From the NCBI RefSeq assembly GCF_000223395.1, contig NC_015931.1:1530001-1562000 (forward strand): DNA of 32,000 nt, given 5' to 3'. Shown piece after piece: positions 3,271 to 22,124 of the stretch. Every line of letters begins with the position of its first letter. Position 1 is the stretch's first letter. The notes beneath the pieces were generated by a model. It was not told the DNA's origin and ran no database searches. It was given only the letters and a program-made list of their open reading frames with translations. Origin of the DNA: Pyrolobus fumarii 1A (GTDB lineage: Archaea > Thermoproteota > Thermoprotei_A > Sulfolobales > Pyrodictiaceae). Made by a program: the position numbers and the translations under genes.

Positions 3271-5328
3271 TCACTCTTCCTCCTCTGGTTCTCCTGGGAA
3301 CCAGAAGGTATCTACGGGCTTTACCTCCTTGCTCGGCTCCTCTATACCCATTAGCTTCTTCGCGGTTGCTATCGTATCCTCTATCTTTCGTTTTGTTGGT
3401 CTCCTCCAGGGTGTCGGATCGTTTCTCACGAGTGGCAACACTATATGCTCGAAGTAGACCTCAGCCAGGGGGCACGTGTCTATACAGATCCTGCACGAGA
3501 CACACTTCTCCGGATTCGTCACCGGATAACCACTGGATACGCTGATAGCGCCCGTTGGGCATGTAGCCTCGCACGCGGCGCAACCAGCACAGAAGGTGCC
3601 CCTATACGCTAGCTTTAGAGCGTCATAGGCTTCCTCGTGAAGCTTCTCTCCCCTCATACCTAGGCTCTCGGCGACGAACCTACGTCCATCGAACGATATC
3701 CTCCATGCATCGCTCTTTTCGAGCACAACAGTGTCGTCCCTCTTCTCAACTCTAGTCGCGCCTAGGATTGATGCCTGCTCTACCAACGCGTCTCTACGGA
3801 GGGGTGAGTCTAGCTCTATCAGTACCATGTCATCCCTATGCTCGACGCGTATGGGTCTAGGCGTTGCCCACCGCTCTAACTTTGGCCTCCATTCGTAGGT
3901 CGAAAGGTCTACTCCACCCTTTCTCGCAAGCCGCTCTTTCTGCGTTGCAGGTGCGTTCCATCTCCAAAGGCCTAGTGTCACCCACTTCTCGGGCATGCCT
4001 AGGCGTCTTCTCCACTCCTCAAGTATCTCGGCCCAACGCTTCCATAGCTCCGGGTGAGTCTCCTCTACTATGCTGAGCTCTGCCATGGTGCTAGCTGGGC
4101 ACATGAAGCAGCCTATACGATCGAAGCCCTTATCGTACAACTTGTTATATGGTAGCTTGTGCTTAGCTATGTACAACCAGATGTGCATTTGTGTCCACTC
4201 TTGTATGGGTGATATCGCTAGAAGCTGTGGAACCCATCGATTCCTCCAAACCCTAGGGGATCTCGCACGATCGAAACTCTCGAAGCCTCTCTGTCCTACA
4301 ACGTTCAACGCCCCATCGGGCCATACCTTCCTCGCTGTGCGAGATAGAGGAGCTAGCTTGCATATCTTACAACACCAGCGGTAGTCGCGGCCAGGCGGCC
4401 CGAAGTATCTAACAGCCCTCCAGAAGCGGTCGCCCGCGCTAGCCTCGACGAGCTCCAGACCCCATCGCTCTGCGGCTTCTCTCACAGCTTCGATTGTCTC
4501 TGGCAGCTCGATGCCAGTATTGTTGAATAGGAGTTTGGGCTCTAGGCCTGTCGAGAGCGTTAAGTGTAGTGCTACGAGGCTATCCTTTCCACCAGAGTAG
4601 GATACTACTAGAGGCTTACCAACCTTCTCGTACATCACGTGTATAAAGGCGTGTGCTTTTGAACTCCTAACGTACAGCTCGTACTCATTAGCTTTGAGTA
4701 CATCCTCGATAGTTGCCCTGGTGTCAGTGTTGAGAGGCTCTCTTTCTCCGCCGAAACGCGTCTGTAGCATAACTCTGCCGCGTCTGACATAGCCTATGCC
4801 CACGGGCTCGCCATTCGCGTCCAGGATTACGACCTGCTCGTTCTCTCTCATGCTATGGCCTGCTGGTATGTCAAAACTTGGGCCTAGCCTCTCGCCAGGC
4901 TTGAGCCTAATGGTAGCTACTATGCCCTCCTCGACGGCTATCCTCGCGGTCCATTTTGAGAGTCTAAATCTCCATCTTCTCTCCACAGGATCGTAGTAGA
5001 ATTTGCCAGCGTGGCCTCCGCCCAGTATCACCTCCTTCATCTCATCCATATGTGGTATCTTGTTGGTTGCAAACGCACGCCCCTCGAATATCTTCGAATA
5101 CAGGCGTTGACCTGCCTCTCTACCAAACTCTTCGACCAAAGCGCGTCGTAGCTTCGTCTCCTCGCCCGCAAACCAGGGCTTAGCATCGCCAGGCTCAGTT
5201 AGCCTCACTGGTATGCCTCTCCCGCCGCATTTGCTACATTCCGGTCCGAGTAGCGGCACGTTGCAATTAGGGCACCACCATAGCTTGCCACGGATGGGCC
5301 ACTTCTTTGCGAGCCTTGCGCTGGGCAT
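3271..5328 (-). CDS. PAPS-reductase-family PP-loop protein fused to N-terminal zinc ribbon/PUA-like region and C-terminal 2x[4Fe-4S] ferredoxin domain
   Basis: N-terminus has WWCPNCNVPLLGPECSKCGG. The PP-loop is VVSYSGGKDSLVALHL. The C-terminus has CAGCAACEATCP and CVSCRICIDTCP ferredoxin motifs. The antisense ORFs inside it are shadows. Confidence 0.8.
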   Translation of the reverse strand: MPSARLAKKWPIRGKLWWCPNCNVPLLGPECSKCGGRGIPVRLTEPGDAKPWFAGEETKLRRALVEEFGREAGQRLYSKIFEGRAFATNKIPHMDEMKEVILGGGHAGKFYYDPVERRWRFRLSKWTARIAVEEGIVATIRLKPGERLGPSFDIPAGHSMRENEQVVILDANGEPVGIGYVRRGRVMLQTRFGGEREPLNTDTRATIEDVLKANEYELYVRSSKAHAFIHVMYEKVGKPLVVSYSGGKDSLVALHLTLSTGLEPKLLFNNTGIELPETIEAVREAAERWGLELVEASAGDRFWRAVRYFGPPGRDYRWCCKICKLAPLSRTARKVWPDGALNVVGQRGFESFDRARSPRVWRNRWVPQLLAISPIQEWTQMHIWLYIAKHKLPYNKLYDKGFDRIGCFMCPASTMAELSIVEETHPELWKRWAEILEEWRRRLGMPEKWVTLGLWRWNAPATQKERLARKGGVDLSTYEWRPKLERWATPRPIRVEHRDDMVLIELDSPLRRDALVEQASILGATRVEKRDDTVVLEKSDAWRISFDGRRFVAESLGMRGEKLHEEAYDALKLAYRGTFCAGCAACEATCPTGAISVSSGYPVTNPEKCVSCRICIDTCPLAEVYFEHIVLPLVRNDPTPWRRPTKRKIEDTIATAKKLMGIEEPSKEVKPVDTFWFPGEPEEEE

Positions 5329-5405: not shown

Positions 5406-6113
5406 TCACCACAACGGGCCGAACACTAGACGCTCCCAGGTACCGCGCTTAGCCTCATACTCGTCACGACTAGCCACAATTCTTGCGGGAACGCCCGCCA
5501 CAACAACCCCCGGTGGCACGTCGCGCGCTACTACGGCGCCTGCTGCAACAACAGCCCTCTTTCCAATCCTAACCCCAGGAGTCACTACGGCACCAGCCCC
5601 AACAACAGCGCCCTCCTCAACAACCACACCGATTAGTCTACGGCTTGGCGGGTAACGATCGTTAGTAAAGACAGCACCAGGCCCGATGAAGACATTGTCG
5701 TGTACAACTGTGCCAGGCGGCAGATAGACACCAGACTGTATAGACACCCGCCTACCAACATACACGTGGCTATCCAGGATTACACGCGTACCTATAACAG
5801 ACTCGTCTCGAACAACACAACCCTCCCTAACCACAACATGATGGCCTATCCTGACTCTCCGCCCTATACTCACAGCCTCATAGATAACACTGTGGCTCCC
5901 TACGCGCGACCCAGCACCTATACGAGTACCTACGCCACGCGACCCCCAGTCAATGCCGCCCCGCCATCCAGAGGCAGCCCCCACTACAGCATAATCGCCT
6001 ATGACCACCTCCTCTTCGACGATAGTAGGGCCTAGGATTGCAGCCCCTCGCCCAACGACCACTGACGAGTGTACAACTGCCTCGGGGGATACACGCCCAA
6101 GCCAGGCCGCCAT
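5406..6113 (-). CDS. hexapeptide-repeat (left-handed beta-helix) acyl/acetyltransferase, sugar N-acetyltransferase-like
   Basis: Long series of [LIV]-G-x-x-x-x hexads, for example VRIGHHVVVREGCVVRDESVIGTRVILDSHVYVGRRVSIQSGVYL. FTNDRYPP and a GVPARIV tail are typical of LbH transferases. The start is uncertain: ATG 6113 or GTG 6062, and both overlap the upstream gene end. Confidence 0.8.
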   Translation of the reverse strand: MAAWLGRVSPEAVVHSSVVVGRGAAILGPTIVEEEVVIGDYAVVGAASGWRGGIDWGSRGVGTRIGAGSRVGSHSVIYEAVSIGRRVRIGHHVVVREGCVVRDESVIGTRVILDSHVYVGRRVSIQSGVYLPPGTVVHDNVFIGPGAVFTNDRYPPSRRLIGVVVEEGAVVGAGAVVTPGVRIGKRAVVAAGAVVARDVPPGVVVAGVPARIVASRDEYEAKRGTWERLVFGPLW

Positions 6114-6703
6114 ACCCTCCCGGGCCTCGCTCCAACCTCCCTCGAGGCTAGTAAAACGGCCTTAGCTAGAGCCTCCTCGCGGCTCCTCGCATGCTCCCAC
6201 ACACCGCCAGTCCAGCTGACAAACCTCGATATCCACTCCACGTCAGCCGCTATGAGATCAGCTCTCGACACCGTCAGGAAGTCGATAACAACCCCTATGC
6301 TCCTCGCGAAGAACGCTATAGGTTCTGGTGGAGGCCCTAGTCTAAACCCACCGCTAGTGAATACTAGTGTGCGAGTAGCGTAGCCCGGTGGCGCCGAGAG
6401 GAGCAGATAACAAGCCTCTCTAATCGCCTCGGAGAGCGCAACCCCCCTCTCAGCAATACTCAAAGAGTTCAACGCGCTCCTAACGAGGCTATAATCGCGA
6501 GTGAAGTATAGCAAAGGTACGGGCCTCCTATAAAACGCTAGTAGAGCAACCCAGCCGCCGCGTTCCAGCAGTTTGCGGGCAGCTGTTGCAGCGGCTTCCC
6601 TTAGAACCTCAAACCTGGACGGCTTAACATCATCGCTAGACGTTAACGCGTTGACATCAATAGCTATTACGGCATAAACGCCCAAGCTTCTCAAGCTGCT
6701 CAC
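6032..6703 (-). CDS. vWA-fold protein with degenerate MIDAS motif
   Basis: The pattern matches the von Willebrand A layout: VYAVIAIDVNALTS replaces DxSxS, then SRFEVLREAAATAARKLL, WVALLAFYRRP, ERGVALSEAIREA, RTLVFTSGG (TDG-like), IGVVIDFLTV and WTGGVWEHA. The GTG start overlaps the upstream stop (GTGA). Confidence 0.55.
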   Translation of the reverse strand: MSSLRSLGVYAVIAIDVNALTSSDDVKPSRFEVLREAAATAARKLLERGGWVALLAFYRRPVPLLYFTRDYSLVRSALNSLSIAERGVALSEAIREACYLLLSAPPGYATRTLVFTSGGFRLGPPPEPIAFFARSIGVVIDFLTVSRADLIAADVEWISRFVSWTGGVWEHARSREEALAKAVLLASREVGARPGRVWRPGLGVYPPRQLYTRQWSLGEGLQS

Positions 6704-7386
6704 CCCATCCTTGGAACCGGGAATGGTAGAAGCTCGAACCTAGGCCTCCATACACTCTCGTCAACCAAGCGTAGCAATGCATAGCAACACACGACTCTCT
6801 TCACGCCAGCACCTCCAGAACGAGCCCCAAGCCTAGGATCACACGCAGCAAGAATACCATGTTTCGCGGCAAGAGCGAGCACAGCAGCCTCCTCTAGCGT
6901 GACACCAAGCTTCCTGACCAGGCTCCTAACACCAGCGATCCGCTCAAACCTAACATCTAGATGCACGCCTATCAGAGCCTCGACACGTCGGACAATAGGT
7001 TCAAGCTCCACTGGCAAAACCAACCGGCTAGACAAGTGCTCAAGCACGCCAAGCCTCCCAAGAACCTCGACGCCAATAGGATCGATTACATAGAGGCTAG
7101 TAGGTGGTGGTGCAGGAGCCTCACGGCAGCCAATCTCAGGTGCCACGCCGGACGCTAGCATAAATGATAGAAACTCTTCGAAACCAACACCGGATATGCG
7201 GAGCGCACGCCATAATGTCGAGCCCCGTTGATAAGCCCGAAGACCAACGAGTCTCATATCAATAGTTTCAAGCAGCCTTCTAAGCGCGTCGCGTACAACC
7301 TCAGCTTTTGACGAATAGATGCCGCTTTCAACCAGCGCATCCATAATTTCGTCGAAGTACTCTCCCACTTCGACACACGTGGGCAT
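6700..7386 (-). CDS. fusion protein: ribbon-helix-helix (CopG-like) + UPF0175-like antitoxin segment + PIN-like (DUF3368-type) domain
   Basis: RHH signature is VEVGEYFDEIMDALVESGIYSSKAEVVRDALRRLL. The UPF0175-like stretch is LRAYQRGSTLWRALRISGVGFEEFLSFMLASGV. The PIN-like stretch is LYVIDPIGVEVLGRLGVLEHL...LEEAAVLALAAKHGILAACDPRL...GVKRVV. I place the start at Met13 of the listed ORF because its ATG overlaps the upstream TAA (TAATG at 7384-7388). Confidence 0.6.
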   Translation of the reverse strand: MPTCVEVGEYFDEIMDALVESGIYSSKAEVVRDALRRLLETIDMRLVGLRAYQRGSTLWRALRISGVGFEEFLSFMLASGVAPEIGCREAPAPPPTSLYVIDPIGVEVLGRLGVLEHLSSRLVLPVELEPIVRRVEALIGVHLDVRFERIAGVRSLVRKLGVTLEEAAVLALAAKHGILAACDPRLGARSGGAGVKRVVCCYALLRLVDESVWRPRFELLPFPVPRMG

Positions 7387-7898
7387 TACGCGACACCCAG
7401 GAACCTCTCTACCTCCTCCCAAGAACTAGTCACAAGATCAAACCCGTGCCGTTGAAGCGTACGGGCTACACGCTCAGAGTAGCCAGCAACGCAATAGAAG
7501 ACACGTTTTCTAAACACGGTAGGCATGACGAACCATTTTGAACAAGGCCCCCTGCAGCAACCAACAACTACAAGCACAGACCCACCATACAACAACCTCA
7601 ACGTATCAACGATAGCCTGATCCCAGCAGCCTCTCCCACCGACAATACCGAGATACTCGACAGACTCACTGCATGTGGCACTGGACCCAAGACACAATGG
7701 AATCAAGCCACCAGACCACCATATGCCGACCAGAACAACTCCTAACGTTGAACTCGTTAGTCTGGTAACGGCCTCCTTGCCAGCCTCGAACCTACCGCCA
7801 CGCTCCATACAACTGCCACCATCTATCAGGATAACAACGTGCTCCAATGTTGACACCCTGGAATCCCCTGGGGGATTCAGAGGCAGGTAGTACACCAT
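7386..7898 (-). CDS. small vWA-like protein with degenerate MIDAS motif
   Basis: HVVILIDGGSCME sits at the position of DxSxS. The alternating beta/alpha pattern is VVLVGIWWSGG, GGRGCWDQAIVDTLRLL, SVLVVVGCC, RVFYCVAGYSERVARTLQRHGFDLV. Weak, motif-level call only. Confidence 0.45.
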   Translation of the reverse strand: MVYYLPLNPPGDSRVSTLEHVVILIDGGSCMERGGRFEAGKEAVTRLTSSTLGVVLVGIWWSGGLIPLCLGSSATCSESVEYLGIVGGRGCWDQAIVDTLRLLYGGSVLVVVGCCRGPCSKWFVMPTVFRKRVFYCVAGYSERVARTLQRHGFDLVTSSWEEVERFLGVA

Positions 7899-7959
7899 AG
7901 AAAAGAGTCTTAACCGCGGCTATGCCGCCATCCAACACAGCCAAGTGAGGTCGGGGTGC

Positions 7960-10900
7960 ATGTCAGCCATGAGTAGGTTCACCCTAGTCACTCTAGCTCT
8001 AGCCCTAGTAGCCCTCGTAGCACTAGCTCCAGCGATCGCAGCTGCCCAGCCATACAAGTTCACGAGGCCACTAACAGTAGTAGTCTGGAAAGGCTCGCTG
8101 ATAGAAGTATACTTGAACTACACCGAGCTAGCAGACCAGTACGGCCTAGGCCCGAAGGGCTACCAGTTCGCACTAGGCATCCCAGGTACCGCTCAGCCAC
8201 TAACTGATCAGCCACTACCAATACTCATTAGCGACCCAGCTGGTACGACATTCTGTACTGTTGGCTACATAATCATTGACATCGGTTCAACGAACATAAA
8301 CTACGCGCTATGGATGACAAGCAGCCTAAACTACACGTTCACGGCGGACATCGGTACTGGCGTACGCGCGACCTACATGCTATTCAGGAGCCCAGCGGAG
8401 AACGACTATCTCGTACACCTATACAACGTCACTGGTAACAGCGAGGTAGGCACACTCAACATATACGCCAAGGTGTACTTCCCGGACAAGGGTAGCCTTG
8501 AGGCTGCTATAAAGGCGGCGAACGATGGCACCGTGCCACCAGCGTGTCAAGATCTGATTGACAGGTGGTGTGCTAACGGCTGCTGGTTACCAGTTTACGG
8601 CGTGATAGTGCCAGAAGATCTGCCGCTAACCCCGGGCAACAGGTATTCACTACTGATCAAGACTACTGCGAGCACCACCTGGGCCTTTGAGGGCGGACTC
8701 TATGTCCAGGCTATGGAGCCAAACGAGATACTAGTCAAGTTTGATGCGGGTACCAGCAACGTACTAGCATTTGGCAGGAAGACTCCACAGAAGATAACCC
8801 TAGCTGACGGTAGCAACATCTATGCGGTTGGCGCTCTCAACGTCACAATCAACTGGACTGTGCTTAGGAGCGCGATTGAGAACAGCCTCTCTGAGAACCT
8901 AGGCGTCAGGAACGTAAGCGCGGTGGTACGTGTAGTATATAGGCCGTCTATCTACAGCCTGGGCCAGATACTAGCCGAGAGCGGTATCGTGACGTACAGC
9001 AGCACGAGTATGAACTATACAGCTGCAGGCTCCCTACTTACGAATGCTTCGGCCGGTAGCTTACCAGCTAGGATACTTGGCGGCGAGTTCGGCACATTCA
9101 ACAAGAGCAACGTCGGTGCAATCATATTCAACCTAACAGTCAACCCAGACGCAACTCTACCAATCGTCAACAAGATGCTAGCACTCAAGTACAGTGTTGG
9201 TGGAATGACGATAATGTTGCCAGCAGCCGAGGGTAGCGTCGACATCGTGGTAAGAGTAAACGAGACAGTGTGCGTTGGTGGTTGCGTAACATTCGACGTG
9301 GTAGGGATAAGCGGAGCGACTGAAGCTGTGCCATTCTGGGCGATAGCAGCCTATATACCGCTAGGATACAAGATAACCATACTGCCGAGTGCAATCTACG
9401 CTGACGACATGAGACTAGACACGCCAGACGATCTAGTTAACGGCTTTAACGCGTCACTGTACGGTGATAGAGATGCACTAAACGTCTATGACGAGCTGCG
9501 TGTAGTTCTAGTGAACTTCATCAGCGACATGACGAAATTCTACCTACCAGCAGGTACCTACACGATACTAGGTGCTGGCACGCCAAACATTGATAGGAAC
9601 GTGACAGCGCTCGAGGCACTACTAATCAAATGGGCTACTGGCGACGTCGTTGGCAGTACGTATGTGAACGAGACGGAGGGTTACATAGCTGCTGGTAACA
9701 AGCTGGCTTACAACAGGATACTAGTCATCTATAATGTCAAGCCAGCACCGTACGCTGGCGCCTACTACTACCTACTGCCAGTCTTCAAGCTGAACCTAAC
9801 GGATGCTGAGGGCCAGATAACAACCGAGGTGATAGCGACACTACCGCCAATAAACGTCACTAACGTCGATAACGTCGCTAGCGGCGATGTCAAGATGGTT
9901 AGTGGTAACACCGTCTTCAGGATAAGACCAGTACTATTCGCGTGGCCTGTTGACGTCATAAGTGGTAGTAGGCTAACATCCGACACTAGCACAGTTGCGA
10001 CACTAGGCACCTACATAATGGTCTATGGCGTCGGCTTCGACCTTGATGACGCCGCACTGAAGCTATTCGTCGGTAACGTCTCGATACCATTCAGCCAGCT
10101 GCGCAAGATACTAGGCTATCAGCTACTACGCGCGGACTTCATCGACGTAGTGGTGGTTAACAAGGAGACCGGCACCTTCGGTGTACTAGTACCGCTATGG
10201 AGGCTCTACGAGCAAGGCTACGATGTACTGGCAGGAGCAAAGACAGGCTACATAACAATCAACGTGACCGGCACCGGCGCCAACAGCGATGTGGCGGGCG
10301 GCCATGGCAACCTAGGCGTATACACCGGTGCAGCCTATGACGCCGCAGCAAGGTACGAGATCGTCGAGCCAGCAGAGCCTCTAGTACTGCTCGAGCCGAG
10401 AGCGTATATCAACCTAACCGGCTCAACCGCGACGATAGCAGGTAACGTGACACTAACCGTAGCGACACCTGACGTAAACGTGCTAGCCTACCTACAGGAC
10501 GGCACCATCTACCGCAACAAGACCGCGGGTGCTGCCTACGAGAAGCTGGTAAGCCTATACCCACCGGCAGACAACAATGCAATGTACTACAACTTCACCC
10601 ACCTAATGGCCGTGGTAATAACCAAGCCAGCGACTGCCGATACGACCTACGCGCTAGTACTCGCCAGCGGTACCACGCCGGTCGCGTTCGCGATCAACAT
10701 GACTGTCAGCGACCTAGCTAGCGGCATCTACGTTGCGAGGGGCATACCGGTGCCGACGGTAAAGAAGGGCACTTACATACTAGCATTCTACAACGAGAGC
10801 GCTACGACGCCAGTGACTGGCACTGGCGCCAGGATAAGGATGGTGCCATCCGTGGTCTTCCACAGCGTCGAGATGGGCGTTGCCGACATGAGCACTGTCG

Positions 10901-12429
10901 CGTGGTGGACTAGCGGCATCTACGCGCCAAGCCTAGACGCGCTGCCAAACGGCACGATAATGATGTACGGTTACAGCTGGGACACCGGCTACGCAATCAA
11001 GCTATACGTCGACCAGACCCAGAAGATGACCATCGAGACTGCACAGATCGATGAGACCGGCTCGTGGACGGCCAGCTATACGGTGCCAGCCACCGCGGCG
11101 GGCTCCACGCTGACACTAGAGCTAGACCAGAACGGTCAGAAGGCTGGCGCCTACGTGAGAGTCATAGAGATCAAGAGGAACGCGCTAGTCGCGAAGGTGA
11201 GCAGCGGCCCAGTGGTCTACGAAGATGGCACCGTGAAGATACCAGTGGTGGTCACTGTAACCTACTATGACGTGCCGGTGGCGTGCAACGCCGACGTCAA
11301 GATAAGCGTGAAGGCATACTATGACGTCAAGAAGCACCTAGCCTACAGCCTAGACCTGACACCAGCCGACTGTGTAGAGCCTGGCGTATGGATGGGCGTC
11401 ATTGAGATACCAGTAATCCAGGCACCAACCTACCTAGTGATCGTTGCTAAGGTTGAGTACACGCTAATGGGCGTTGCAAAGCTGACACAGTTCGCAGAGG
11501 CTGGCGTAACGATCGACCCAGAGCTAAAGGCAATGGTGGCGACCGCCGCTGAGAAGGCCGACACAGCTGCTATGGCGGCCGAGGAGGTCAAGACCCTAGT
11601 AGAGACGCTCAACACCAAGGTCGACAGTATAGCTACAACTGTCGAGGGCATCGACACCAAGCTAGCCAGCATCGCTGCTAAGCTAGACACAATCGGTACA
11701 AGCCTAAGCGACATCGCTGCTAAGCTAGATGACATCAAGACCAGCCTAACGAGCGCTGTAGCCGAGATAACCACCAAGCTAGACAAGATCAGCGGTGACC
11801 TCGAGAGCGTCAAGGCCACACTAGCTGGCATCACCAGTGAGGTGAGCACGGCAGTCAAGGAGGCGCTAGCTGGCGTGGCAACCGTCGACGATGTGAAGAG
11901 CATCGTCGAGAGCGCCAAGAACGCAATACTAGACAAGCTAGCTGCCAGCACCAGCGATGTCAAGGCTGCTGTGGCTGCTGCCAAGAGCGAGCTAGCTAGG
12001 AAGATAGACGAGAGCACTGCGGCAGTAACAAGCGCGGTCGACGCGGCCGTCAACAAGATACTAGGTAAGGTTGACGAGGTGGCGGCAGCCATCACCGACC
12101 TAAAGAACAGCATGGCAACCAAGAGTGATGTGGAGGCTGTGAAGACAGCTGTTGACCAGCTAAGCAGCAAGCTAGACGAGGTCAAGGGCGCGATCACTGC
12201 AAGCGTAGAGGACGTGAAGAAGGCGGTCAACAGCCTAGCCGCCAAGCTAGGCGACGTAAAGGCCGGTGTTGACAGCCTCAAGACCGAGATAAGCAACGTC
12301 AAGAACAGCGTTGACAGCGTTGGCACCAACACGATGATCTTCGGCGCTGCCAGCCTAGTGATAAGCATAATCGTACTAGCTCTACTAATACTCGTGGCTG
12401 TTAAGGGAGGACTACTAGCATCCCACTAA
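7960..12429 (+). CDS. S-layer glycoprotein, tetrabrachion-like (signal peptide, large N-glycosylated ectodomain, long C-terminal coiled-coil stalk, C-terminal TM anchor)
   Basis: Signal peptide is FTLVTLALALVALVALAPAIAAAQP. I see more than twenty N-x-S/T sequons by eye (NYT, NVT, NLT, NET, NKT...). About 300 aa of Ala/Ser/Lys/Asp heptad-type repeats run from roughly 11520 to 12300. The protein ends in the hydrophobic anchor MIFGAASLVISIIVLALLILVAV. The ORF is open from GTG 7945; ATG 7960 or 7969 is the more likely start. Confidence 0.8.
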   Translation: MSAMSRFTLVTLALALVALVALAPAIAAAQPYKFTRPLTVVVWKGSLIEVYLNYTELADQYGLGPKGYQFALGIPGTAQPLTDQPLPILISDPAGTTFCTVGYIIIDIGSTNINYALWMTSSLNYTFTADIGTGVRATYMLFRSPAENDYLVHLYNVTGNSEVGTLNIYAKVYFPDKGSLEAAIKAANDGTVPPACQDLIDRWCANGCWLPVYGVIVPEDLPLTPGNRYSLLIKTTASTTWAFEGGLYVQAMEPNEILVKFDAGTSNVLAFGRKTPQKITLADGSNIYAVGALNVTINWTVLRSAIENSLSENLGVRNVSAVVRVVYRPSIYSLGQILAESGIVTYSSTSMNYTAAGSLLTNASAGSLPARILGGEFGTFNKSNVGAIIFNLTVNPDATLPIVNKMLALKYSVGGMTIMLPAAEGSVDIVVRVNETVCVGGCVTFDVVGISGATEAVPFWAIAAYIPLGYKITILPSAIYADDMRLDTPDDLVNGFNASLYGDRDALNVYDELRVVLVNFISDMTKFYLPAGTYTILGAGTPNIDRNVTALEALLIKWATGDVVGSTYVNETEGYIAAGNKLAYNRILVIYNVKPAPYAGAYYYLLPVFKLNLTDAEGQITTEVIATLPPINVTNVDNVASGDVKMVSGNTVFRIRPVLFAWPVDVISGSRLTSDTSTVATLGTYIMVYGVGFDLDDAALKLFVGNVSIPFSQLRKILGYQLLRADFIDVVVVNKETGTFGVLVPLWRLYEQGYDVLAGAKTGYITINVTGTGANSDVAGGHGNLGVYTGAAYDAAARYEIVEPAEPLVLLEPRAYINLTGSTATIAGNVTLTVATPDVNVLAYLQDGTIYRNKTAGAAYEKLVSLYPPADNNAMYYNFTHLMAVVITKPATADTTYALVLASGTTPVAFAINMTVSDLASGIYVARGIPVPTVKKGTYILAFYNESATTPVTGTGARIRMVPSVVFHSVEMGVADMSTVAWWTSGIYAPSLDALPNGTIMMYGYSWDTGYAIKLYVDQTQKMTIETAQIDETGSWTASYTVPATAAGSTLTLELDQNGQKAGAYVRVIEIKRNALVAKVSSGPVVYEDGTVKIPVVVTVTYYDVPVACNADVKISVKAYYDVKKHLAYSLDLTPADCVEPGVWMGVIEIPVIQAPTYLVIVAKVEYTLMGVAKLTQFAEAGVTIDPELKAMVATAAEKADTAAMAAEEVKTLVETLNTKVDSIATTVEGIDTKLASIAAKLDTIGTSLSDIAAKLDDIKTSLTSAVAEITTKLDKISGDLESVKATLAGITSEVSTAVKEALAGVATVDDVKSIVESAKNAILDKLAASTSDVKAAVAAAKSELARKIDESTAAVTSAVDAAVNKILGKVDEVAAAITDLKNSMATKSDVEAVKTAVDQLSSKLDEVKGAITASVEDVKKAVNSLAAKLGDVKAGVDSLKTEISNVKNSVDSVGTNTMIFGAASLVISIIVLALLILVAVKGGLLASH
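11671..11754 (+). repeat. 42-bp tandem duplication encoding 14-aa (two-heptad) coiled-coil units
   Basis: atcgctgctaagctaga occurs at 11671 and again at 11713, exactly 42 nt apart. The units encode IAAKLDTIGTSLSD and IAAKLDDIKTSLTS, and the following units (AVAEITTKLDKISG, DLESVKATLAGITS) keep the 14-aa period. Confidence 0.8.
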
Positions 12430-13017: not shown

Positions 13018-14487
13018 ATGGAGTTTAGTGTATCGAGTGTATTGTCTCTTGCTTACCTGTTATCTGTCATAAACTATTACGTTGGTCTTGTGTTGTACGC
13101 GATGCCTGCTCCGATTGCCGTGAAGAGGTTTGGGCTTAGAATGTCATATCATGGTGCTATTGCGGCTCTCCTAGTAATGTTGTACGGTAGTCTAGTCTAT
13201 GTCGTAGAGCTGACATTTAAAACACTGGGGTTAAGCTGGGAGTCACTCTCTAGTTTCTATACGAGATCTAGCTTGCTAGCCTCCGGCTTCTACTCGATGG
13301 CTGCATTGTTAGCGTCCTTCCGCAGTCATATACTTGGTATAGTTCCCGATGCGATGCGTAACCTAGTGTCTATCATACTAAACACGGCTTATCGGAACTT
13401 GATGCGGGCATCAATATTGATAGGTACTAGCGAGGCTATGGTAAAGCTTGTTGCTAGCTTGGCTTATCATTACTGGGATAAGCTCGTGCTATTGGGAGTA
13501 CTGTTATACTCTCTGCCTGCTGGTGTTGGGCGCAAGGCTGGGGCTAGTCTCATAGCAAGCGGCATAGTATTGTACATTGCAGTTCCGTTGCTCCCGCTTT
13601 GGGTCAATATGTGGCTAGATTCAGTTGCGAAGTCCAATCCTATAGCGGCTCTCGTGGGTGGATTGGGTTATGCGAAACCCACGCTCTACATGCTATGGGG
13701 TAATGTGGTTGATCATAGTGGTCTAGGGCAGGGGTATACTATTGCCCTGTGGAGGGGTGGCGTACCGCTAGTAGCTAGGAGCGGGTACGCATCATATATT
13801 GTTACTTACCCCTTGGAGCCCGGCACGTACCTGCTTCAGGTATATGCGGGTCCAATTGTTGTAAAGAGTAGGGTAGTGTCAATCCCGGATGAGTGTCTGG
13901 AAAGTGAGTCGCCGTTTACCGATTTGTTAACTGTTATACAGCTTCTTGTGAATAACTTGTTGTATGGTAGAGTTGTGCAGTGTAAATACGATGTGATGCT
14001 CGAGAATGTGTTGATGCTCGGTGAGCACATTCTCGTAGAGTGGCCATCTACAGTACAAGTGTTGAGCTACGACTACAATCAGAGCGACGATGGCGTTTTT
14101 GTCAACATTAGTTTCGAGGGTAGTGGTGTTGTAAAAGTATGCGCGTGTTGCGGTTGTAGTGTGGATAGTTTATCAGGTATTATTGTAGAGAAGGAGGAGC
14201 AAGAAGACGGTGTTAGCTGCAGCTATTATCGCGTCGAAGACAGTACAGTGATAGCCATAACTGCGAGAGAATGTGGTGCTACTTTCTCCTCTGTGGCGCC
14301 ACAAGGTGGTATACAGTATCCGCTCTTGGATTTCTTGCTGCACGATATTCCGATGGCAGTTTACATGCTGGCAATGGGTTATGCGGCAGGCGTATGGAGC
14401 TATCTGATGCTTCTATCCCTGCTCATATATGGGTTTGGAAGAGTGCTTGGTGAAAGCGGGGTGCTAGTCATACGTATACGATACTAG
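13018..14487 (+). CDS. cedA: polytopic membrane protein (about 6 N-terminal TM + about 200-aa non-membrane domain + C-terminal TM), CedA/VirB6-like candidate
   Basis: Hydrophobic segments lie at roughly aa 5-28, 45-65, 85-105, 130-170, 175-200 and 440-480. The middle region contains a prealbumin/CarboxypepD_reg-like stretch (YPLEPGTYLLQVYAGPIVVKSRVV) and a Cys cluster, VKVCACCGCS. It sits between two small membrane ORFs. Confidence 0.55.
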   Translation: MEFSVSSVLSLAYLLSVINYYVGLVLYAMPAPIAVKRFGLRMSYHGAIAALLVMLYGSLVYVVELTFKTLGLSWESLSSFYTRSSLLASGFYSMAALLASFRSHILGIVPDAMRNLVSIILNTAYRNLMRASILIGTSEAMVKLVASLAYHYWDKLVLLGVLLYSLPAGVGRKAGASLIASGIVLYIAVPLLPLWVNMWLDSVAKSNPIAALVGGLGYAKPTLYMLWGNVVDHSGLGQGYTIALWRGGVPLVARSGYASYIVTYPLEPGTYLLQVYAGPIVVKSRVVSIPDECLESESPFTDLLTVIQLLVNNLLYGRVVQCKYDVMLENVLMLGEHILVEWPSTVQVLSYDYNQSDDGVFVNISFEGSGVVKVCACCGCSVDSLSGIIVEKEEQEDGVSCSYYRVEDSTVIAITARECGATFSSVAPQGGIQYPLLDFLLHDIPMAVYMLAMGYAAGVWSYLMLLSLLIYGFGRVLGESGVLVIRIRY

Positions 14488-14495
14488 GGACGAGT

Positions 14496-14663
14496 ATGAC
14501 GCTAGAAATTAGTGCAAGAGATAAACGCCTTCAAATAGCTTTCTTGCTGATGACGCTACCTCTGGTTATCATGGGGGATACGATCCTACGTTTACTCTCC
14601 ATTATCGCGCTATCATCGGGTCTAGTAGCATTTGTGCTTGTAGAGAGGGTTGAGGAGAGTTGA
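14496..14663 (+). CDS. cedA2: unlisted 55-aa two-segment membrane ORF (CedA2-like candidate)
   Basis: My hand translation from ATG 14496 gives MTLEISARDKRLQIAFLLMTLPLVIMGDTILRLLSIIALSSGLVAFVLVERVEES, ending at TGA 14661-14663. The stop overlaps the TTG start (14660) of the ATPase gene as TTGA. The ORF is below the 60-aa cutoff of the ORF track. Confidence 0.45.
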   Translation: MTLEISARDKRLQIAFLLMTLPLVIMGDTILRLLSIIALSSGLVAFVLVERVEES

Positions 14664-16252
14664 TCGATCCTGCGCTTGTGTTTCTCCTTGTAGGTGTTGC
14701 TTCTGCCGTGGTGCAAGCTGCTCGCAGTGTTTGGGGTGGAAGGAGTACTGCGAAGCTAGCTGCTCTGTCGGGATTGAAGGTAAACCATGAATATATAAAG
14801 CTAGGTGATAAGTGCTATACTGTCGTCCTCGTAGAGGACTTGGTGTGTGTCTTTGAAGCTGGTGAGTTATTCGCAAAAAGCTTGGAGTTGATAATTTCAT
14901 CTCAGGAGGTCGCAGGTGTTATTGTTGCTAAGCATAGTGTTGACAGAAGCTCAGCTCTCGCAAACCTAGAGAATAGTATTATGTCTTTGCGTGTAGTCCT
15001 TGAGCGAGAGCCTGGTAACAAGAACGTTGAGAGAAAGCTGCGTATACTCGAGAGGATGTACGAGAGTATAATGACTGGTTATCAGCCGGTTAAAGCCGTG
15101 ATTGGAATCGTTGTTAGGGGTGAATGTAGAAGAAGTCTATACAGAGAAGCTGAGCGCATAGCCAGGGAGATAACAAAGCTCGGATGCAAAGCTAAGGTTA
15201 TGACGGGCCAAGAAGCGCTCAAGGCACTCTTGCTGCCATTATCTTATAGCGGCTCTAGAAAAATTACAACAAGCAGGCAAGTTGTTACAAGCTTGTATGG
15301 TGCGTTGTCTAACACGCTAAGTAGTACACGTGAAGGCATCTACCTTGGTAGAAGGAATGATGGTGTTGCTTTTCTTCTTCCGCTCTGGTCGTCTAGCGGT
15401 AGCTTGCATTATGTGATTGTAGGGCCTACTGGTAGAGGTAAGACAACCTTAGAGGCAATCCTGGCGGTGCGCGCAGACGCAATGGGTATCAACGTGTACA
15501 GCGTCGACCCAAAGGGTGACCTTGCAAATTACTTGTCAGGGTTCCTCAGGATCGTGAAACTGACCATACGTGAAGTGTTTGAAAGCATGTTATGGTTGTA
15601 TCGTGAGGGTGTCATAGACAAGCGTGTGGTTAGCGAGGCGCTTGCAGAGCTAAACTTGGATACCATTATTGACGCTGCTATAACAGCTGCAGAGGAATGT
15701 AAACCGCTTTACCGCCTTGTTGATGGCCACTTGTTATCAAGATTAAAGAGGCTAGGTTTGAGCAACGTGACATGCCGAAGGCCATCATGGGTAAGCTCGG
15801 GGGTAGTGTATGATGTCAGCGGTCTACCAGAGGCGCTCAAGAGTATCGGCGCTATTGTAGTTTCCCTATCAGCTCTTTCTAGACGAAGTAGAGGGCTACT
15901 TCTCATTGACGAGGCGTGGCGTATTGGAAAACTTGCCTCGTTGCACGTTATACGCCTGTACAAAGAGGCGAGGAGCGCTGGACTAAGTATAGTGTCGGCT
16001 ACACAGGATCCAGACGACCTTCCACAAGAGATATACAACAATTCGTATGGTGTGATACTCTTCGGGTCTAACGACGAGGAGTATATCACCAGGGTTGTTA
16101 AGAGATTGGGGCTTAGTAGTGAGGATGGGCGCAAGTTGCGCATGCTAGGTGTTGGCGAGGTTCTCGTGAGGCTTGCTGGATCTAGACCAGAGCTGGTAGA
16201 GATTGATGCGAGTGAAATCCTTGGAATGAAGGGGTTAAAGGCTGGCAGTTAG
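14660..16252 (+). CDS. cedB: VirB4/TrbE-like (HerA-FtsK superfamily) conjugation-type ATPase with N-terminal TM helix, CedB-like
   Basis: N-terminal hydrophobic helix is ALVFLLVGVASAVVQAA. Walker A is VIVGPTGRGKTTL. Walker B is LLLIDEAWRIGK, the DEAW form typical of VirB4. VSATQDPDDL follows. TTG start coupled to the upstream small ORF. Confidence 0.8.
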   Translation: MIDPALVFLLVGVASAVVQAARSVWGGRSTAKLAALSGLKVNHEYIKLGDKCYTVVLVEDLVCVFEAGELFAKSLELIISSQEVAGVIVAKHSVDRSSALANLENSIMSLRVVLEREPGNKNVERKLRILERMYESIMTGYQPVKAVIGIVVRGECRRSLYREAERIAREITKLGCKAKVMTGQEALKALLLPLSYSGSRKITTSRQVVTSLYGALSNTLSSTREGIYLGRRNDGVAFLLPLWSSSGSLHYVIVGPTGRGKTTLEAILAVRADAMGINVYSVDPKGDLANYLSGFLRIVKLTIREVFESMLWLYREGVIDKRVVSEALAELNLDTIIDAAITAAEECKPLYRLVDGHLLSRLKRLGLSNVTCRRPSWVSSGVVYDVSGLPEALKSIGAIVVSLSALSRRSRGLLLIDEAWRIGKLASLHVIRLYKEARSAGLSIVSATQDPDDLPQEIYNNSYGVILFGSNDEEYITRVVKRLGLSSEDGRKLRMLGVGEVLVRLAGSRPELVEIDASEILGMKGLKAGS

Positions 16253-19221: not shown

Positions 19222-21198
19222 CTAGATACCTGAGAGACGCGAGAGAAACCTTGGTATATCCTCTGGCCGGGCGACAACCCTGACTGTAGCATACTCGGAC
19301 ACAGCCCTGCGCTCGTTACTACAGTGGCGCGGCGGTAGTATGAAGAGAAGGTGCCACCCCTCTCGAGCTAATCTAGCCGCGGTTTCTGATGGTCTCTCGT
19401 CTTCAACTGTCTGGCACAAGTCAGTGACTATAACCATCTTCGAGGGTGTTGTGTAGACTCGTGCTGTTTCGCGGAGGGCTACTGAAATGTTAGTATAGCC
19501 TTCGAATGATACGCGGAAGAGTAACTCTATAATCCTGCGGCGCGAAAGCTTCCAGGCATTCTGAACTATTTCTACGTCACTTGAGAAGAGCGTAAGGGTA
19601 TACACGAGACCCGAGAAACTGGAAGCCGCAAGAAGCGCCCATAGAGTGTACTTGGCCATGCTGCCACTAGTATCGAGAACGAGCGCTATACTAGGCTTCT
19701 TTCTACGCTTCCTGGCGACAATAGGATTCTCTCTCAGCGCGACCAGGTTATACACTGTCCGTCTAACATCTACCCGGCCTCTCTGCGAGATTATGGTTTC
19801 ACTGCTCCTCTTCGCATGTTTAGCTGCACGTGCTTCCATCCTACGCCATACTATCTCGGCAAGCCTCAGGGCGGTGCGCTTAAGATGATCGTCGCCGCTT
19901 CTGTAAACCTCCCGGAGATAGAGAAGAGCCTCATCCGGTTGCATGCGCTTTACGATAGAATAAAGACGTATCATCGCATCGCTTACACCCTCAATAACAG
20001 AGCGTAGCTGTTCGACACGCTCCCGGTACCTCTCGATGGCCCTGATAGCCCAATCTGGCGCCTCACTATAGTCTATCTGTTTCACTTTCTCTAACTCGTA
20101 GAGAGCATAGTCTAGTTGTGCTTCATCCCCCCTGGCTGCAGCTAAGAAGCCCTGCTCGGCACGAGCAAGCATACCTGCAATTGCAACAACAGCCTCTTCC
20201 CAGCTTCTAGGCTGCCTTGATATCCTAACTTCGCTCCAAACGCTGAGATCCACCTCGCCTAGGAGCCCCGCTGCAACACCAATACCTCTGCGATCATGCG
20301 AGATCTTGCGGAGTATGGAGCGGAGAGCGTTAGCATCAAGCAGGCGAAGAGCCTCGGCCAGCATGTCGCGTGATTCGCGGCTTCTCAGCAACTCTAGGGC
20401 CAGACGGGGCTCGCTGCGCAACAGACTAGCCAGACTACGTGGAGTCAGCGCATCGAGATTACGGAGCAATTTGTAAGCGCTCCAAGAGTCTCTTGGGGTC
20501 TCGCCCGATTCGAGTCTCTTAGCAACTATACTTGCGAGTTTACGCGCTAGGCCGCGATTACCCTCTTGTAGTGCCTGTAAAGCGGCTAAAGCAATCCTAT
20601 CTATCTCGATACCATCGAGCTTCTCCTCGTCAACCGGCGCAGCATAGAGTGCAAACCATTCGAGTTTACCTCTAGATATCATGCGAGCCGCACTAGCAGC
20701 AAGAGCATCCCATGCCGACCCATACTGACGTAGAAGTGATCGTATTCGTCTAATTGCGGCATCCCGATCAAGTACAACGTCGCCACGCGGTGTACGTACA
20801 ATGAGGCCAAGCAGGCGTAGACGCGAGTATGCCTCTCTACGCTCCTCGGCGTGAGGGCCATTCAAAAGCTTCTTCTTCGAGTATATCCTCGAGCCCCAGC
20901 CTAGACCAAGCCTACGTAGATCGTCCTCCACGGCGGCTATAACGCGAGCTATAGAGTTTTGACTCTGGTTGATCTCCCTCCACACCCGCTCTACAACGGT
21001 CTCCTCCCTATCGTTATGCGCGAAAACTGCACGGATAACATCGTGGAGTATCTCCTTGTCAAGCTCCTTGCCCTCGAGAAGCGCGAGGTTCTCGGCTATA
21101 CGCAGTGCATCTACGATTTCAGATGTTCCGACTTGTAGACCTTCGCGTCTAAGCCTATAGGCAATGCGTATGCATAGACTCACAAGGTCTTCCTTCAA
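19222..21198 (-). CDS. vWA-domain protein (CoxE-like) with large N-terminal helical region, partner of MoxR ATPase
   Basis: The C-terminal domain has an intact MIDAS motif, KKPSIALVLDTSGSMAKY, then GYTNISVAL and MVIVTDL. The N-terminal ~470 aa are Leu/Arg/Ala-rich and helical. The TTG start overlaps the MoxR stop (TTGA). Confidence 0.75.
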   Translation of the reverse strand: MKEDLVSLCIRIAYRLRREGLQVGTSEIVDALRIAENLALLEGKELDKEILHDVIRAVFAHNDREETVVERVWREINQSQNSIARVIAAVEDDLRRLGLGWGSRIYSKKKLLNGPHAEERREAYSRLRLLGLIVRTPRGDVVLDRDAAIRRIRSLLRQYGSAWDALAASAARMISRGKLEWFALYAAPVDEEKLDGIEIDRIALAALQALQEGNRGLARKLASIVAKRLESGETPRDSWSAYKLLRNLDALTPRSLASLLRSEPRLALELLRSRESRDMLAEALRLLDANALRSILRKISHDRRGIGVAAGLLGEVDLSVWSEVRISRQPRSWEEAVVAIAGMLARAEQGFLAAARGDEAQLDYALYELEKVKQIDYSEAPDWAIRAIERYRERVEQLRSVIEGVSDAMIRLYSIVKRMQPDEALLYLREVYRSGDDHLKRTALRLAEIVWRRMEARAAKHAKRSSETIISQRGRVDVRRTVYNLVALRENPIVARKRRKKPSIALVLDTSGSMAKYTLWALLAASSFSGLVYTLTLFSSDVEIVQNAWKLSRRRIIELLFRVSFEGYTNISVALRETARVYTTPSKMVIVTDLCQTVEDERPSETAARLAREGWHLLFILPPRHCSNERRAVSEYATVRVVARPEDIPRFLSRLSGI

Positions 21199-22124
21199 AC
21201 TCCGAAGACCTCCCTTAGAACCTCGTCCACTACCTCCTCTTCCTCAACCCTCTTGTATAGAGTTACCGTTGCAGCCTCAATAACGTCCCTAACGTCAACT
21301 GTATCGCTTCCACGCAGTTCTGCAAGCCTCGCCGCCACTCTAGCCCATGTGACAGTATCGGCAGGACCCGGTTTATACGAGGCTCTCTTTCTCAACTCGT
21401 TAACAACGGCTATCATAGAACGAAGCAGCTCGTCGGGAAGTTTAGCCCTTGAATCGAGCCTTATGCGTACGATCTCTGCTTCGCGCTCGGGAGGCGGATA
21501 GTCGAAGCGTATCCTTACGACTCTTCTCAGGAAAGCATCGCTAAGTTCGCCCTGCCCGATATCCTCTGGGTTACTAGTGAAGATCACTTGGAATCCTGGG
21601 CCTCTGGCTCTAAACACCTTCCTAAGCTCGGGTACTATTATGCGCCTCTTGTCAATTATGTCAAGAAGCATGTTTTGGAATTCCTCGCTACTCCTTCTAA
21701 TCTCGTCGACAAGGACGCCAGCATCCAGTATTATGGCAGCTAGTAGGGGCCTAGGTATGTAGCTCTCCTCGTTGAAACCATATTTCATGGCCATCAATGG
21801 GTGGAAATCACCGATAACTCGGTACTCGTCATAGTTCTCGCTACAGGGTAACACGAAGGCGGTCTTCCCGGCCCAGAGAGTAAGTATAGCCTCACCAATC
21901 TCAGTCTTGCCGGTGCCGGGTGGCCCCTCAAATAGCACCGGCCTGCCCGCCATAAACGCCGCTAATACCAGTGACACTAGCCTCTTGTCTACTATTAGAC
22001 GGTATTCATCCCTGAGTATGCGTACCATTTCGTCTGGATTACGTACCGGTTTTCGTGTCTCAACCACCTGCCCATAGATCTCATACACTTTCCTCACGAT
22101 GGGGTCATCGGCGTCAACACTCAT
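21195..22124 (-). CDS. MoxR-family AAA+ ATPase
   Basis: Walker A is VLFEGPPGTGKTEIGEAI and Walker B is VLVDEIRRSSEEFQNMLLDIID. VIFTSNPEDIGQGELSDAFLRRV is a MoxR-like sensor/Arg region. Size is 309 aa. Confidence 0.85.
   Translation of the reverse strand: MSVDADDPIVRKVYEIYGQVVETRKPVRNPDEMVRILRDEYRLIVDKRLVSLVLAAFMAGRPVLFEGPPGTGKTEIGEAILTLWAGKTAFVLPCSENYDEYRVIGDFHPLMAMKYGFNEESYIPRPLLAAIILDAGVLVDEIRRSSEEFQNMLLDIIDKRRIIVPELRKVFRARGPGFQVIFTSNPEDIGQGELSDAFLRRVVRIRFDYPPPEREAEIVRIRLDSRAKLPDELLRSMIAVVNELRKRASYKPGPADTVTWARVAARLAELRGSDTVDVRDVIEAATVTLYKRVEEEEVVDEVLREVFGV

Follow-up and report, generated by a model that had tools for sequence, protein, structure and literature searches.

A 32,000-nt stretch of the genome of Pyrolobus fumarii 1A (the window, as the whole of it is called here) carries on its minus strand, at positions 5406-7898, four closely packed genes that are named g1 to g4 in the order of their transcription. 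At the centre of the set are g2, which encodes a fusion of ribbon-helix-helix (RHH), UPF0175 and PIN domains, and g3, which encodes a von Willebrand factor A (vWA) protein, and it is this pair, its companions and its possible role that are considered below. Open reading frame (ORF) calling placed the four genes at 7386-7898 (g1), 6700-7422 (g2), 6032-6703 (g3) and 5406-6113 (g4), with g2 translated from an ATG at 7386 that lies within a TAATG motif, so that its span becomes 6700-7386. When the minus strand was read directly the g1/g2 junction was found to be TAATG (7388-7384), the g2/g3 junction GTGA (6703-6700), and g3 and g4 to overlap by 82 nt, the ATG of g4 at 6113 standing ahead of the g3 stop codon. 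The tight coupling of all four genes proposed in a first-pass annotation of this DNA was thus verified at each junction. Gene neighbourhoods were compared across 47 related loci of metagenome and genome origin, designated by L numbers up to L047.

The products of the four genes

The product of g2 is a single ORF of 228 aa in which three parts can be distinguished. Residues 1-43 (7258..7386, minus strand) make up a ParD-like RHH DNA-binding domain, for which the curated threshold was passed (ParD_antitoxin PF03693, 29.4 bits against a cut-off of 21) and which matched ParD chains in the PDB, 7b22 and 3kxe, with E values from 1e-4 to 2e-3 (best 1.2e-4). Residues 44-86 (7129..7257, minus strand) were assigned, from matches of the family to PF03683 and from the helices at 44-53, 58-65 and 69-78 of an AlphaFold2 (AF2) model, to a three-helix helix-turn-helix like that of UPF0175 (COG2886), which is followed by a proline-rich linker. 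Residues 98-228 with the stop codon (6700..7095, minus strand) correspond to a PIN domain of the COG2405/DUF3368 type. The model has a pLDDT of 74 overall and of 87-94 in this C-terminal domain, the fold of which was matched by Foldseek to the PIN protein PAE2754 (1v8p, prob 1.0, TMt 0.60), other matches being SSO1118 (2mdt), the PIN domain of Rrp44 and HARP.

A profile search of 1.84 billion cluster representatives recovered about 40 full-length relatives of g2, all of them single ORFs of 250-270 aa. Across 27 relatives Pfam detected PIN-TPR-GreABC (PF20698) in nine, UPF0175 (PF03683) in seven, with a best E value of 1.9e-6, and RHH_1 or ParD in 12, while precomputed matches listed PF03683 for the homologues at L044 and L046 and DUF3368 (PF11848) for those at L041 and L044. 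Three acidic columns of the PIN domain are well kept in the 27 sequences: D102 is Asp in 24/27 and Glu in two more, E166 is Glu in 26/27 and Asp in the other, and D183 is present in all 27. The RHH profile, the family-level UPF0175 and PIN matches and the PIN fold together bear out the earlier description of g2 as an RHH-UPF0175-PIN fusion. Every member for which the source supplies a name goes as hypothetical, 'PIN domain-containing', 'UPF0175 family' or an RHH/nucleic-acid-binding regulator.

Directly downstream, g3 (6032..6703, minus strand) encodes a vWA protein of 223 aa with a fully degenerate MIDAS (metal ion-dependent adhesion site) and a Pro/Arg-rich C-terminal tail that is specific to the clade of Pyrolobus. 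Its identification as a vWA protein stands, the curated threshold for VWA_2 (PF13519) being passed with 36.9 bits against a cut-off of 27 and the g3 family profile matching BatB (3ibs) with an E value of 1.9e-4. Alignment with MIDAS-intact homologues showed that D16 is retained and that N, L, V and S stand in place of S, S, T and D, giving the motif DVNALTS. All g3 homologues outside the Pyrolobus clade retain all five residues (DxSxS...T/S...(T/S)DG), and the loss of the MIDAS is therefore a derived, clade-specific trait.

The first gene, g1 (7386..7856, minus strand), encodes a small, cysteine-rich protein of 156 aa if translated from the GTG at 7856, or of 170 aa if the ATG at 7898 is used. 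The GTG appears the more likely start, because in 2/4 related lineages the ORF opens only past a conserved palindrome that is described below. The database version of g1 (P0001) has 140 aa and begins at the internal Met of DGGSCMER; this start is too late, as every relative has the strand and the VVxLxDGGxCMER motif preserved in the same reading frame upstream of the Met. The 140-aa version drops the first beta-strand and the MIDAS-equivalent motif, and several relatives share the same mis-call (143-145 aa).

Sequence searches with g1 gave no Pfam or NCBIfam match and no significant match to a PDB sequence, nor was the threshold of a curated vWA profile reached; the one near-match, a CDGSH/NEET protein (E 0.11, with a Cys-poor alignment), was rejected as due to chance. 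The family is small, with only eight members found among 5.8 billion protein clusters, and the AF2 model built on these eight sequences has a pLDDT of 88.2 and a pTM of 0.87. A Foldseek search of the PDB with this model returned 134 matches at E<=1e-3, and all 50 of those listed were vWA domains, including those of TFIIH p44, ArnB (8s05), vWA2 (5a8j), Rpn10 and the integrin I domain; the best values among the matches listed were an E of 1.6e-6, a prob of 1.0 and a TMq of up to 0.74. Comparison by hhalign linked g1 to the broad g3 family (prob 87.7%, E 3.4e-6, 147 columns), a result that is meaningful only with the broad family, since with only the four g3 sequences of the clade in the alignment the prob was a low 5%. 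A vWA alpha/beta fold (b1-a1-b2-b3-a2-a3-b4-...-b5-a-b6-a) can thus be predicted for g1 with confidence, and the vWA assignment made earlier from the sequence is in agreement with both the structural matches and the profile comparison.

The positions of the MIDAS in g1 are taken by D12, G14, C16, G76 (with C77 adjacent) and C100, the first motif reading DGGSCM. Eight cysteines are invariant (C16, C55, C62, C77, C100, C101, C105 and C122), as is the motif GGRGCWD, and six of them (C16, C77, C100, C101, C105 and C122) are located at the C-terminal ends of b1, b4 or b5 or in the a2-a3 loop. From the alignment and the predicted secondary structure it is inferred that these six cluster on the MIDAS face, where they could form disulfides or else a metal or Fe-S site based on Cys. 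The combination of DxSxS with the Thr and the Asp is found in neither g1 nor g3, and the two motifs from which the loss of DxSxS had been deduced, DGGSCM and DVNALTS, are both present in the translations. The proposal that the two proteins are inactive vWA scaffolds holds in so far as the MIDAS is degenerate in both; it is nevertheless confined to this lineage, the partners outside the Pyrolobus clade being intact. Neither g1 nor g3 has an apparent signal peptide or membrane segment when the sequences are read by eye, and both should therefore be cytoplasmic.

The last gene, g4 (5406..6113, minus strand), encodes a left-handed beta-helix (hexapeptide) acyltransferase (Hexapep PF00132, 96.1 bits against a cut-off of 27). 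The nearest family is that of the NeuD/PglB/VioB sugar N-acetyltransferases, to which it scored 92.1 bits, under the TIGR03570 cut-off of 160.8. It accompanies the other genes in the Pyrolobus clade only, apart from one non-adjacent case 1.8 kb off in L010, and is a clade-specific passenger outside the conserved core, a newly attached add-on. The overlap between g3 and g4 (6032..6113, minus strand) is dual-coding, with both frames and the DNA itself kept in L002, L003 and L005. The g3 tail that it encodes, GARPGRVWRPGLGxYPPRQLY, is invariant and present in the Pyrolobus clade only, and probably arose by g3 reading through into g4.

Conservation of the g2-vWA pair

The close relatives of this locus come from Pyrodictiaceae-type metagenome-assembled genomes in which g2 is 65-71% identical, and they share the order of the whole region: Ced, S-layer, g1-g2-g3-g4, a PAPS-reductase-like gene and Lhr. 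Taken alone this is only synteny. The more distant loci tell more, since every fused g2 homologue for which downstream DNA was present directly precedes a g3-like vWA gene, mostly with an overlap of 4-22 nt, translational coupling of the two being the usual case. The pair was found in this form at L010, L012, L014, L015, L017, L018 and L024-L031 and in the Pyrolobus clade, and also at L041/L042 (Acidilobus saccharovorans ASAC_1217), L043, L044, L045, L046 (Acidilobaceae) and L047, spanning about 14 lineages of Desulfurococcales, Acidilobaceae and Pyrodictiaceae. In these wider loci g2 is only 22-34% identical and the other neighbours vary, from MoeA and ribosomal genes (L041) to ParA (L043), DNA polymerase B (L046) and helicases. 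As the pair is kept at such low identity while the other neighbours change, it is to be regarded as a real conserved unit. The gene association extends beyond the P. fumarii genome, the opposite of what the first-pass annotation had named as refuting it, and it is well supported that the module is vertically inherited and specific to Desulfurococcales-type archaea.

Variation around this core was considerable. Many loci add a second small vWA gene downstream, encoding 168-174 aa without a MIDAS, and the 168-aa family is clearly related to that of g3 (hhalign prob 98.3%, E 1.9e-14). There was no significant similarity between this family and g1 (hhalign E 0.33), so the two cannot be called orthologues. 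Two loci, L010 and L011, have an upstream MIDAS-intact vWA copy in place of the small downstream one. The Pyrolobus clade is peculiar in having the extra, cysteine-rich vWA gene g1 upstream, in the MIDAS-less state of g3 and in the g3 tail that overprints the start of g4. The four-gene set that had been taken as a unit is therefore coupled throughout in P. fumarii, but what is conserved is the fusion with its downstream vWA gene, the second small vWA gene being optional. Split versions also occur, at L013, L016, L020, L021, L022 and L037, in which the RHH-UPF0175 part and the PIN domain have a gene each, the PIN gene coming second and often overlapping the first by 1-4 nt, and none of these pairs has a vWA neighbour. 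They resemble unfused ancestors of g2. No MoxR-like ATPase gene was found next to the module, either in the operon of the window or at any of the 47 loci, which extends to the whole set the earlier observation that the operon has no AAA+ ATPase partner.

Rates of divergence were compared, as protein identity, between the window and three relatives. Identities of 65-71% for g2, 61-66% for g3 and 62-67% for g4 are like those of the Lhr helicase (65-67%), while g1, at 35-51%, is like the S-layer protein (38%) and CedA1 (42%). The pattern suggests a cellular function that is stable and has one subunit evolving fast, rather than a mobile element. Judged by the conserved synteny and the housekeeping-like divergence, the distribution does not appear to be the mobile and patchy one of toxin-antitoxin (TA) genes, and no PADLOC model matched either g1-g4 or the corresponding trio of L025 at E<=0.01. 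Of the regulatory and conflict roles suggested in the first-pass annotation, the former is favoured and the latter, as a mobile system, is disfavoured by the synteny, the rates and the lack of a PADLOC match.

The S-layer neighbour and the intergenic region

Divergent from the operon is an S-layer-type gene (7960..12429, plus strand) encoding 1489 aa with a signal peptide, 25 N-glycosylation sequons and a C-terminal coiled coil and membrane anchor. An 18-nt stretch just 5' of the ATG at 7960, ACACAGCCAAGTGAGGTC (plus strand, 7935-7952), is invariant in five relatives, and because this stretch, with its Shine-Dalgarno-like GAGGT, precedes that ATG the listed start, a GTG at 7945, is probably wrong. 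The same architecture of signal peptide, many sequons, Ser/Thr/Ala-rich C-terminal coiled coil, one membrane anchor and short basic tail was found in large neighbours of the module at L014, L023, L025, L029, L030, L033 and L043 as well as in the window, and the large neighbours at L046 and L047 have the same faint coiled-coil Pfam matches. An S-layer-type neighbour is thus present in most module lineages and in either orientation, divergent in the window clade and L043 and co-directional in the other loci. The envelope link that had been guessed from the single genome is in this respect stronger than supposed, as the adjacency is seen repeatedly, in several diverged lineages and with either orientation of the gene, but the glycan role that was suggested with it is backed by g4 only.

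Large secreted proteases, of subtilase S8 type or sedolisin-type with MG2 domains, are also seen beside the module. At L047 (1904-5851) and L015 (1-3948) a 1315-aa protein, with a Peptidase_S8 match in L047, is encoded between the S-layer-type gene and the module, and at L017 (1665-4730) and L019 (976-4839) a sedolisin-type secreted protease stands beside it instead. The arrangement at L047 brings to mind Staphylothermus, in which tetrabrachion has a protease bound to it.

Between g1 and the S-layer gene lies a conserved TATA-like box, GGTTAAGA / TTTAAGA (7908..7915), identified in an alignment of five relatives and inferred to be a promoter element. Between the TTAAGA box and the likely start of g1 a repeat search revealed a perfect palindrome, GAATCCCC-ca-GGGGATTC (7861..7878), about 90 nt from the start of the divergent S-layer gene, and its core, TCCCCnnGGGGA, is kept at the same place in five relatives. 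It could be an operator for the RHH domain, or an element that pairs with the G-rich ribosome-binding site; as an RNA hairpin it was not significant (z -1.33). At L024, L025, L029 and L030, about 10-60 nt 5' of the g2 homologue, the DNA from a TTTTAAATA box to the start codon contains two complementary runs 24-27 nt apart, one of C (AACCCCC / ATCCCCC) and one of G (GGGGGTT / GGGGGTA), the latter at the place of a ribosome-binding site. These pairs of runs echo the CCCC/GGGG palindrome of the window, and masking of the ribosome-binding site may be a feature that they share.

Beyond the S-layer gene, at 13018-16252 of the window, there are matches to CedA1 and to a HerA/AAA_10-type (CedB-like) ATPase, as there are in L002 and L003. 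This looks like a Ced DNA-import locus, and the order Ced, S-layer, module recurs in L043. On the other side, 3' of g4 by 77 nt and on the same strand, is a gene for a protein of 685 aa (3271-5328), which is followed by that for the Lhr helicase. Homologues of the 685-aa protein match PAPS_reduct and several 4Fe-4S ferredoxin families in Pfam, and the protein begins, when read by eye, with a Cys-rich, zinc-ribbon-like stretch. With 78-83% identity among relatives its gene is the most conserved in the region, and it may be co-transcribed with g1-g4.

Known systems and the possible role of the module

The closest precedent for g2 is provided by the COG2886 (UPF0175) and COG2405 (DUF3368, PIN) families, which have been predicted to form type II TA pairs (PMC2701414, PMC5499597). 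The g2 family contains the same two families in the same order, with UPF0175 before a COG2405-type PIN, SSO1118 (2mdt), the structural representative of COG2405, is among its fold matches, and split two-gene relatives exist. It differs in that both parts are fused into one protein with an additional N-terminal RHH, rather than encoded by separate small genes, and in that the g2 gene always precedes a vWA gene and has a stable position and housekeeping-like rates. A vWA partner for COG2405-type PIN proteins is mentioned neither in these two papers nor in anything retrieved by full-text literature searches. Such a search likewise found no publication describing the g2-vWA module, in line with the earlier view that the combination is not a described system.

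In gene layout the module recalls the archaellum regulators of Sulfolobus acidocaldarius, in which two vWA paralogues, vWA2 and ArnB, are encoded up- and downstream of ArnA beside the archaellum operon (PMC6509490). In both cases two cytoplasmic vWA paralogues flank a regulator, a cell-surface locus is adjacent and there is no ATPase. The central protein, however, is a zinc-finger/FHA protein in the Arn system and an RHH-UPF0175-PIN fusion here; the Arn vWA proteins, at about 370 aa, retain the MIDAS and carry beta-sandwich and helical-bundle domains as well, whereas g1 and g3 consist of one domain each and are 156-223 aa long; and the Arn system is regulated by Ser/Thr phosphorylation and has the archaellum rather than an S-layer gene as its neighbour. 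Beyond the vWA domains the likeness is one of gene layout rather than of demonstrated homology.

Pairs of a MoxR (AAA+) ATPase and a vWA protein, including the vWA-MoxR conflict systems (PMC7159879, PMC5898192), resemble the module in having a standalone vWA adaptor, and the g3 family is BatB-like (3ibs), but no MoxR or other AAA+ gene adjoins the module in the window or at the 47 loci. The sole MoxR-type ATPase (AAA_5) in the window is, as the first-pass annotation had stated, 13 kb off and has its own vWA partner; its gene (21195-22124) overlaps by 4 nt a VWA_CoxE gene at 19222-21198. That pair is unrelated to the module, and shows that the genome also has an ATPase-dependent vWA system. Complexes of the FitAB and VapBC type, in which RHH and PIN proteins are combined, bind operator DNA and autoregulate. 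The combination of an RHH DNA-binding module with PIN is found again in g2, but FitAB and VapBC consist of two separate proteins that form heteromers and have no UPF0175 and no vWA partner, and the DNA binding of g2 is only predicted.

On balance the most plausible reading of the module is that of a domesticated TA fusion that, with its vWA partners, would act as a cytoplasmic, ATPase-independent regulatory module, probably tied to the expression of the envelope or S-layer. The function so proposed would run as follows. The g2 protein would dimerise through its RHH domain and bind DNA, with the palindrome ahead of the operon as a candidate site, and its PIN domain would be able to bind metal and probably to cut RNA, because three of the four acidic residues are kept. 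The vWA partner or partners would bind g2 and set its activity or its oligomeric state, the contact being made in most lineages between the MIDAS and an acidic residue, and in the Pyrolobus clade by a surface that is Cys-based or needs no metal. The complex would work without an ATPase, in a layout like that of vWA2-ArnA-ArnB beside the Sulfolobus archaellum operon. Expression of the envelope or S-layer is the most likely target because the module recurs next to an S-layer gene.

A number of observations weigh against this proposal. For the g2 protein of the window itself the Pfam thresholds for UPF0175 and PIN were not reached, the assignment of these parts resting on matches of the family and on a model with a pLDDT of 74. 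The second canonical acidic position of the PIN domain (E127) is variable, being Glu or Asp in 8/27 relatives, and the nuclease may thus be inactive; members of COG2405 have been reported with 2-5 PIN acidic residues (PMC5499597). The palindrome is present as a single copy in the window and is not above chance statistically, and upstream of the distant g2 homologues some C-run/G-run inverted repeats were found but no common motif or shared operator. As to the envelope, a phmmer search with the S-layer protein of the window against the large neighbours at distant loci retrieved close relatives only, the architecture alone being shared, and in A. saccharovorans (L041) the g2-vWA pair has no S-layer neighbour, from which it could be argued that the link is old synteny rather than function.

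It is also conceivable, if unlikely, that this is a three-component TA or defence system, in which the PIN toxin is held in cis by the fused UPF0175/RHH and a vWA sensor releases the RNase on infection or stress. The domains of g2 are those of the predicted COG2886-COG2405 pair (PMC2701414, PMC5499597), with split versions known and the PIN acidic residues conserved, vWA proteins have the part of sensors or adaptors in conflict systems of bacteria (PMC7159879), and g1 is evolving fast (35-51% identity). Yet the module was not matched by PADLOC, keeps a fixed chromosomal place and the same neighbours throughout all relatives and has housekeeping-like rates in g2 and g3; the neighbours examined are cellular genes, those for the S-layer, Ced, MoeA, helicases and ribosomal proteins, and none was recognised as belonging to a defence system or a mobile element; and the MoxR or other NTPase that the described vWA conflict systems need (PMC7159879) was found at none of the 47 loci.

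Decidedly improbable is a direct role as an accessory of S-layer or envelope biogenesis, with the vWA proteins and g4 acting on the S-layer protein or its glycan, as chaperones or by acylation, and g2 as autoregulator. The recurrent S-layer-type adjacency, the S8 protease that comes downstream of a tetrabrachion-like gene at L047 and L015, the likeness of g4 to NeuD/PglB/VioB sugar acetyltransferases and a divergence rate of g1 equal to that of the S-layer protein would all fit such a role, but g1 and g3, to judge from their sequences, should be cytoplasmic, g4 is missing from almost all the wider loci and falls below the cut-off of the NeuD family, and the g2-vWA pair is also found away from any S-layer gene. 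That the genes have no joint function, and reflect only gene packing in a compact hyperthermophile genome and inherited synteny, is very improbable, and for the g2-vWA core the observations already speak against it. Compact archaeal genomes do commonly have stop and start codons that overlap, and synteny of the whole region from Ced to Lhr is common to all close relatives. The pair, however, is kept down to 22-34% identity amid neighbours that have all been replaced, it has withstood being inverted with respect to the S-layer gene, and the vWA neighbour is always found with the fused PIN and never with split PIN pairs.

The proposal of a regulatory module built on a domesticated TA fusion can be carried further, to a so far unrecognised regulator of S-layer or envelope expression across the whole order Desulfurococcales, with the RHH controlling transcription and the PIN domain targeting mRNA. 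In the Pyrolobus clade g1 would have exchanged its Mg2+-dependent MIDAS for a site lined with cysteines and binding zinc or an Fe-S cluster, C16, C77, C100, C101, C105 and C122 on the MIDAS face being the candidate residues, and the module would thereby have become a redox or metal sensor. This version is speculative and rather improbable but, if true, a Cys-based cofactor site replacing the MIDAS would be a new use of the vWA fold.

Little is known of how S-layer genes are controlled in archaea, and the module is a concrete candidate for such control across an order. It looks like a clear case of an entire TA pair that became one protein, settled in the chromosome for good and acquired a new partner protein, and would add to ArnA/ArnB a second case in archaea of vWA proteins that apparently work beside a regulator without an ATPase. 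The loss of the MIDAS in one clade, with cysteines at the same positions, provides a natural experiment on the binding chemistry of the vWA domain.

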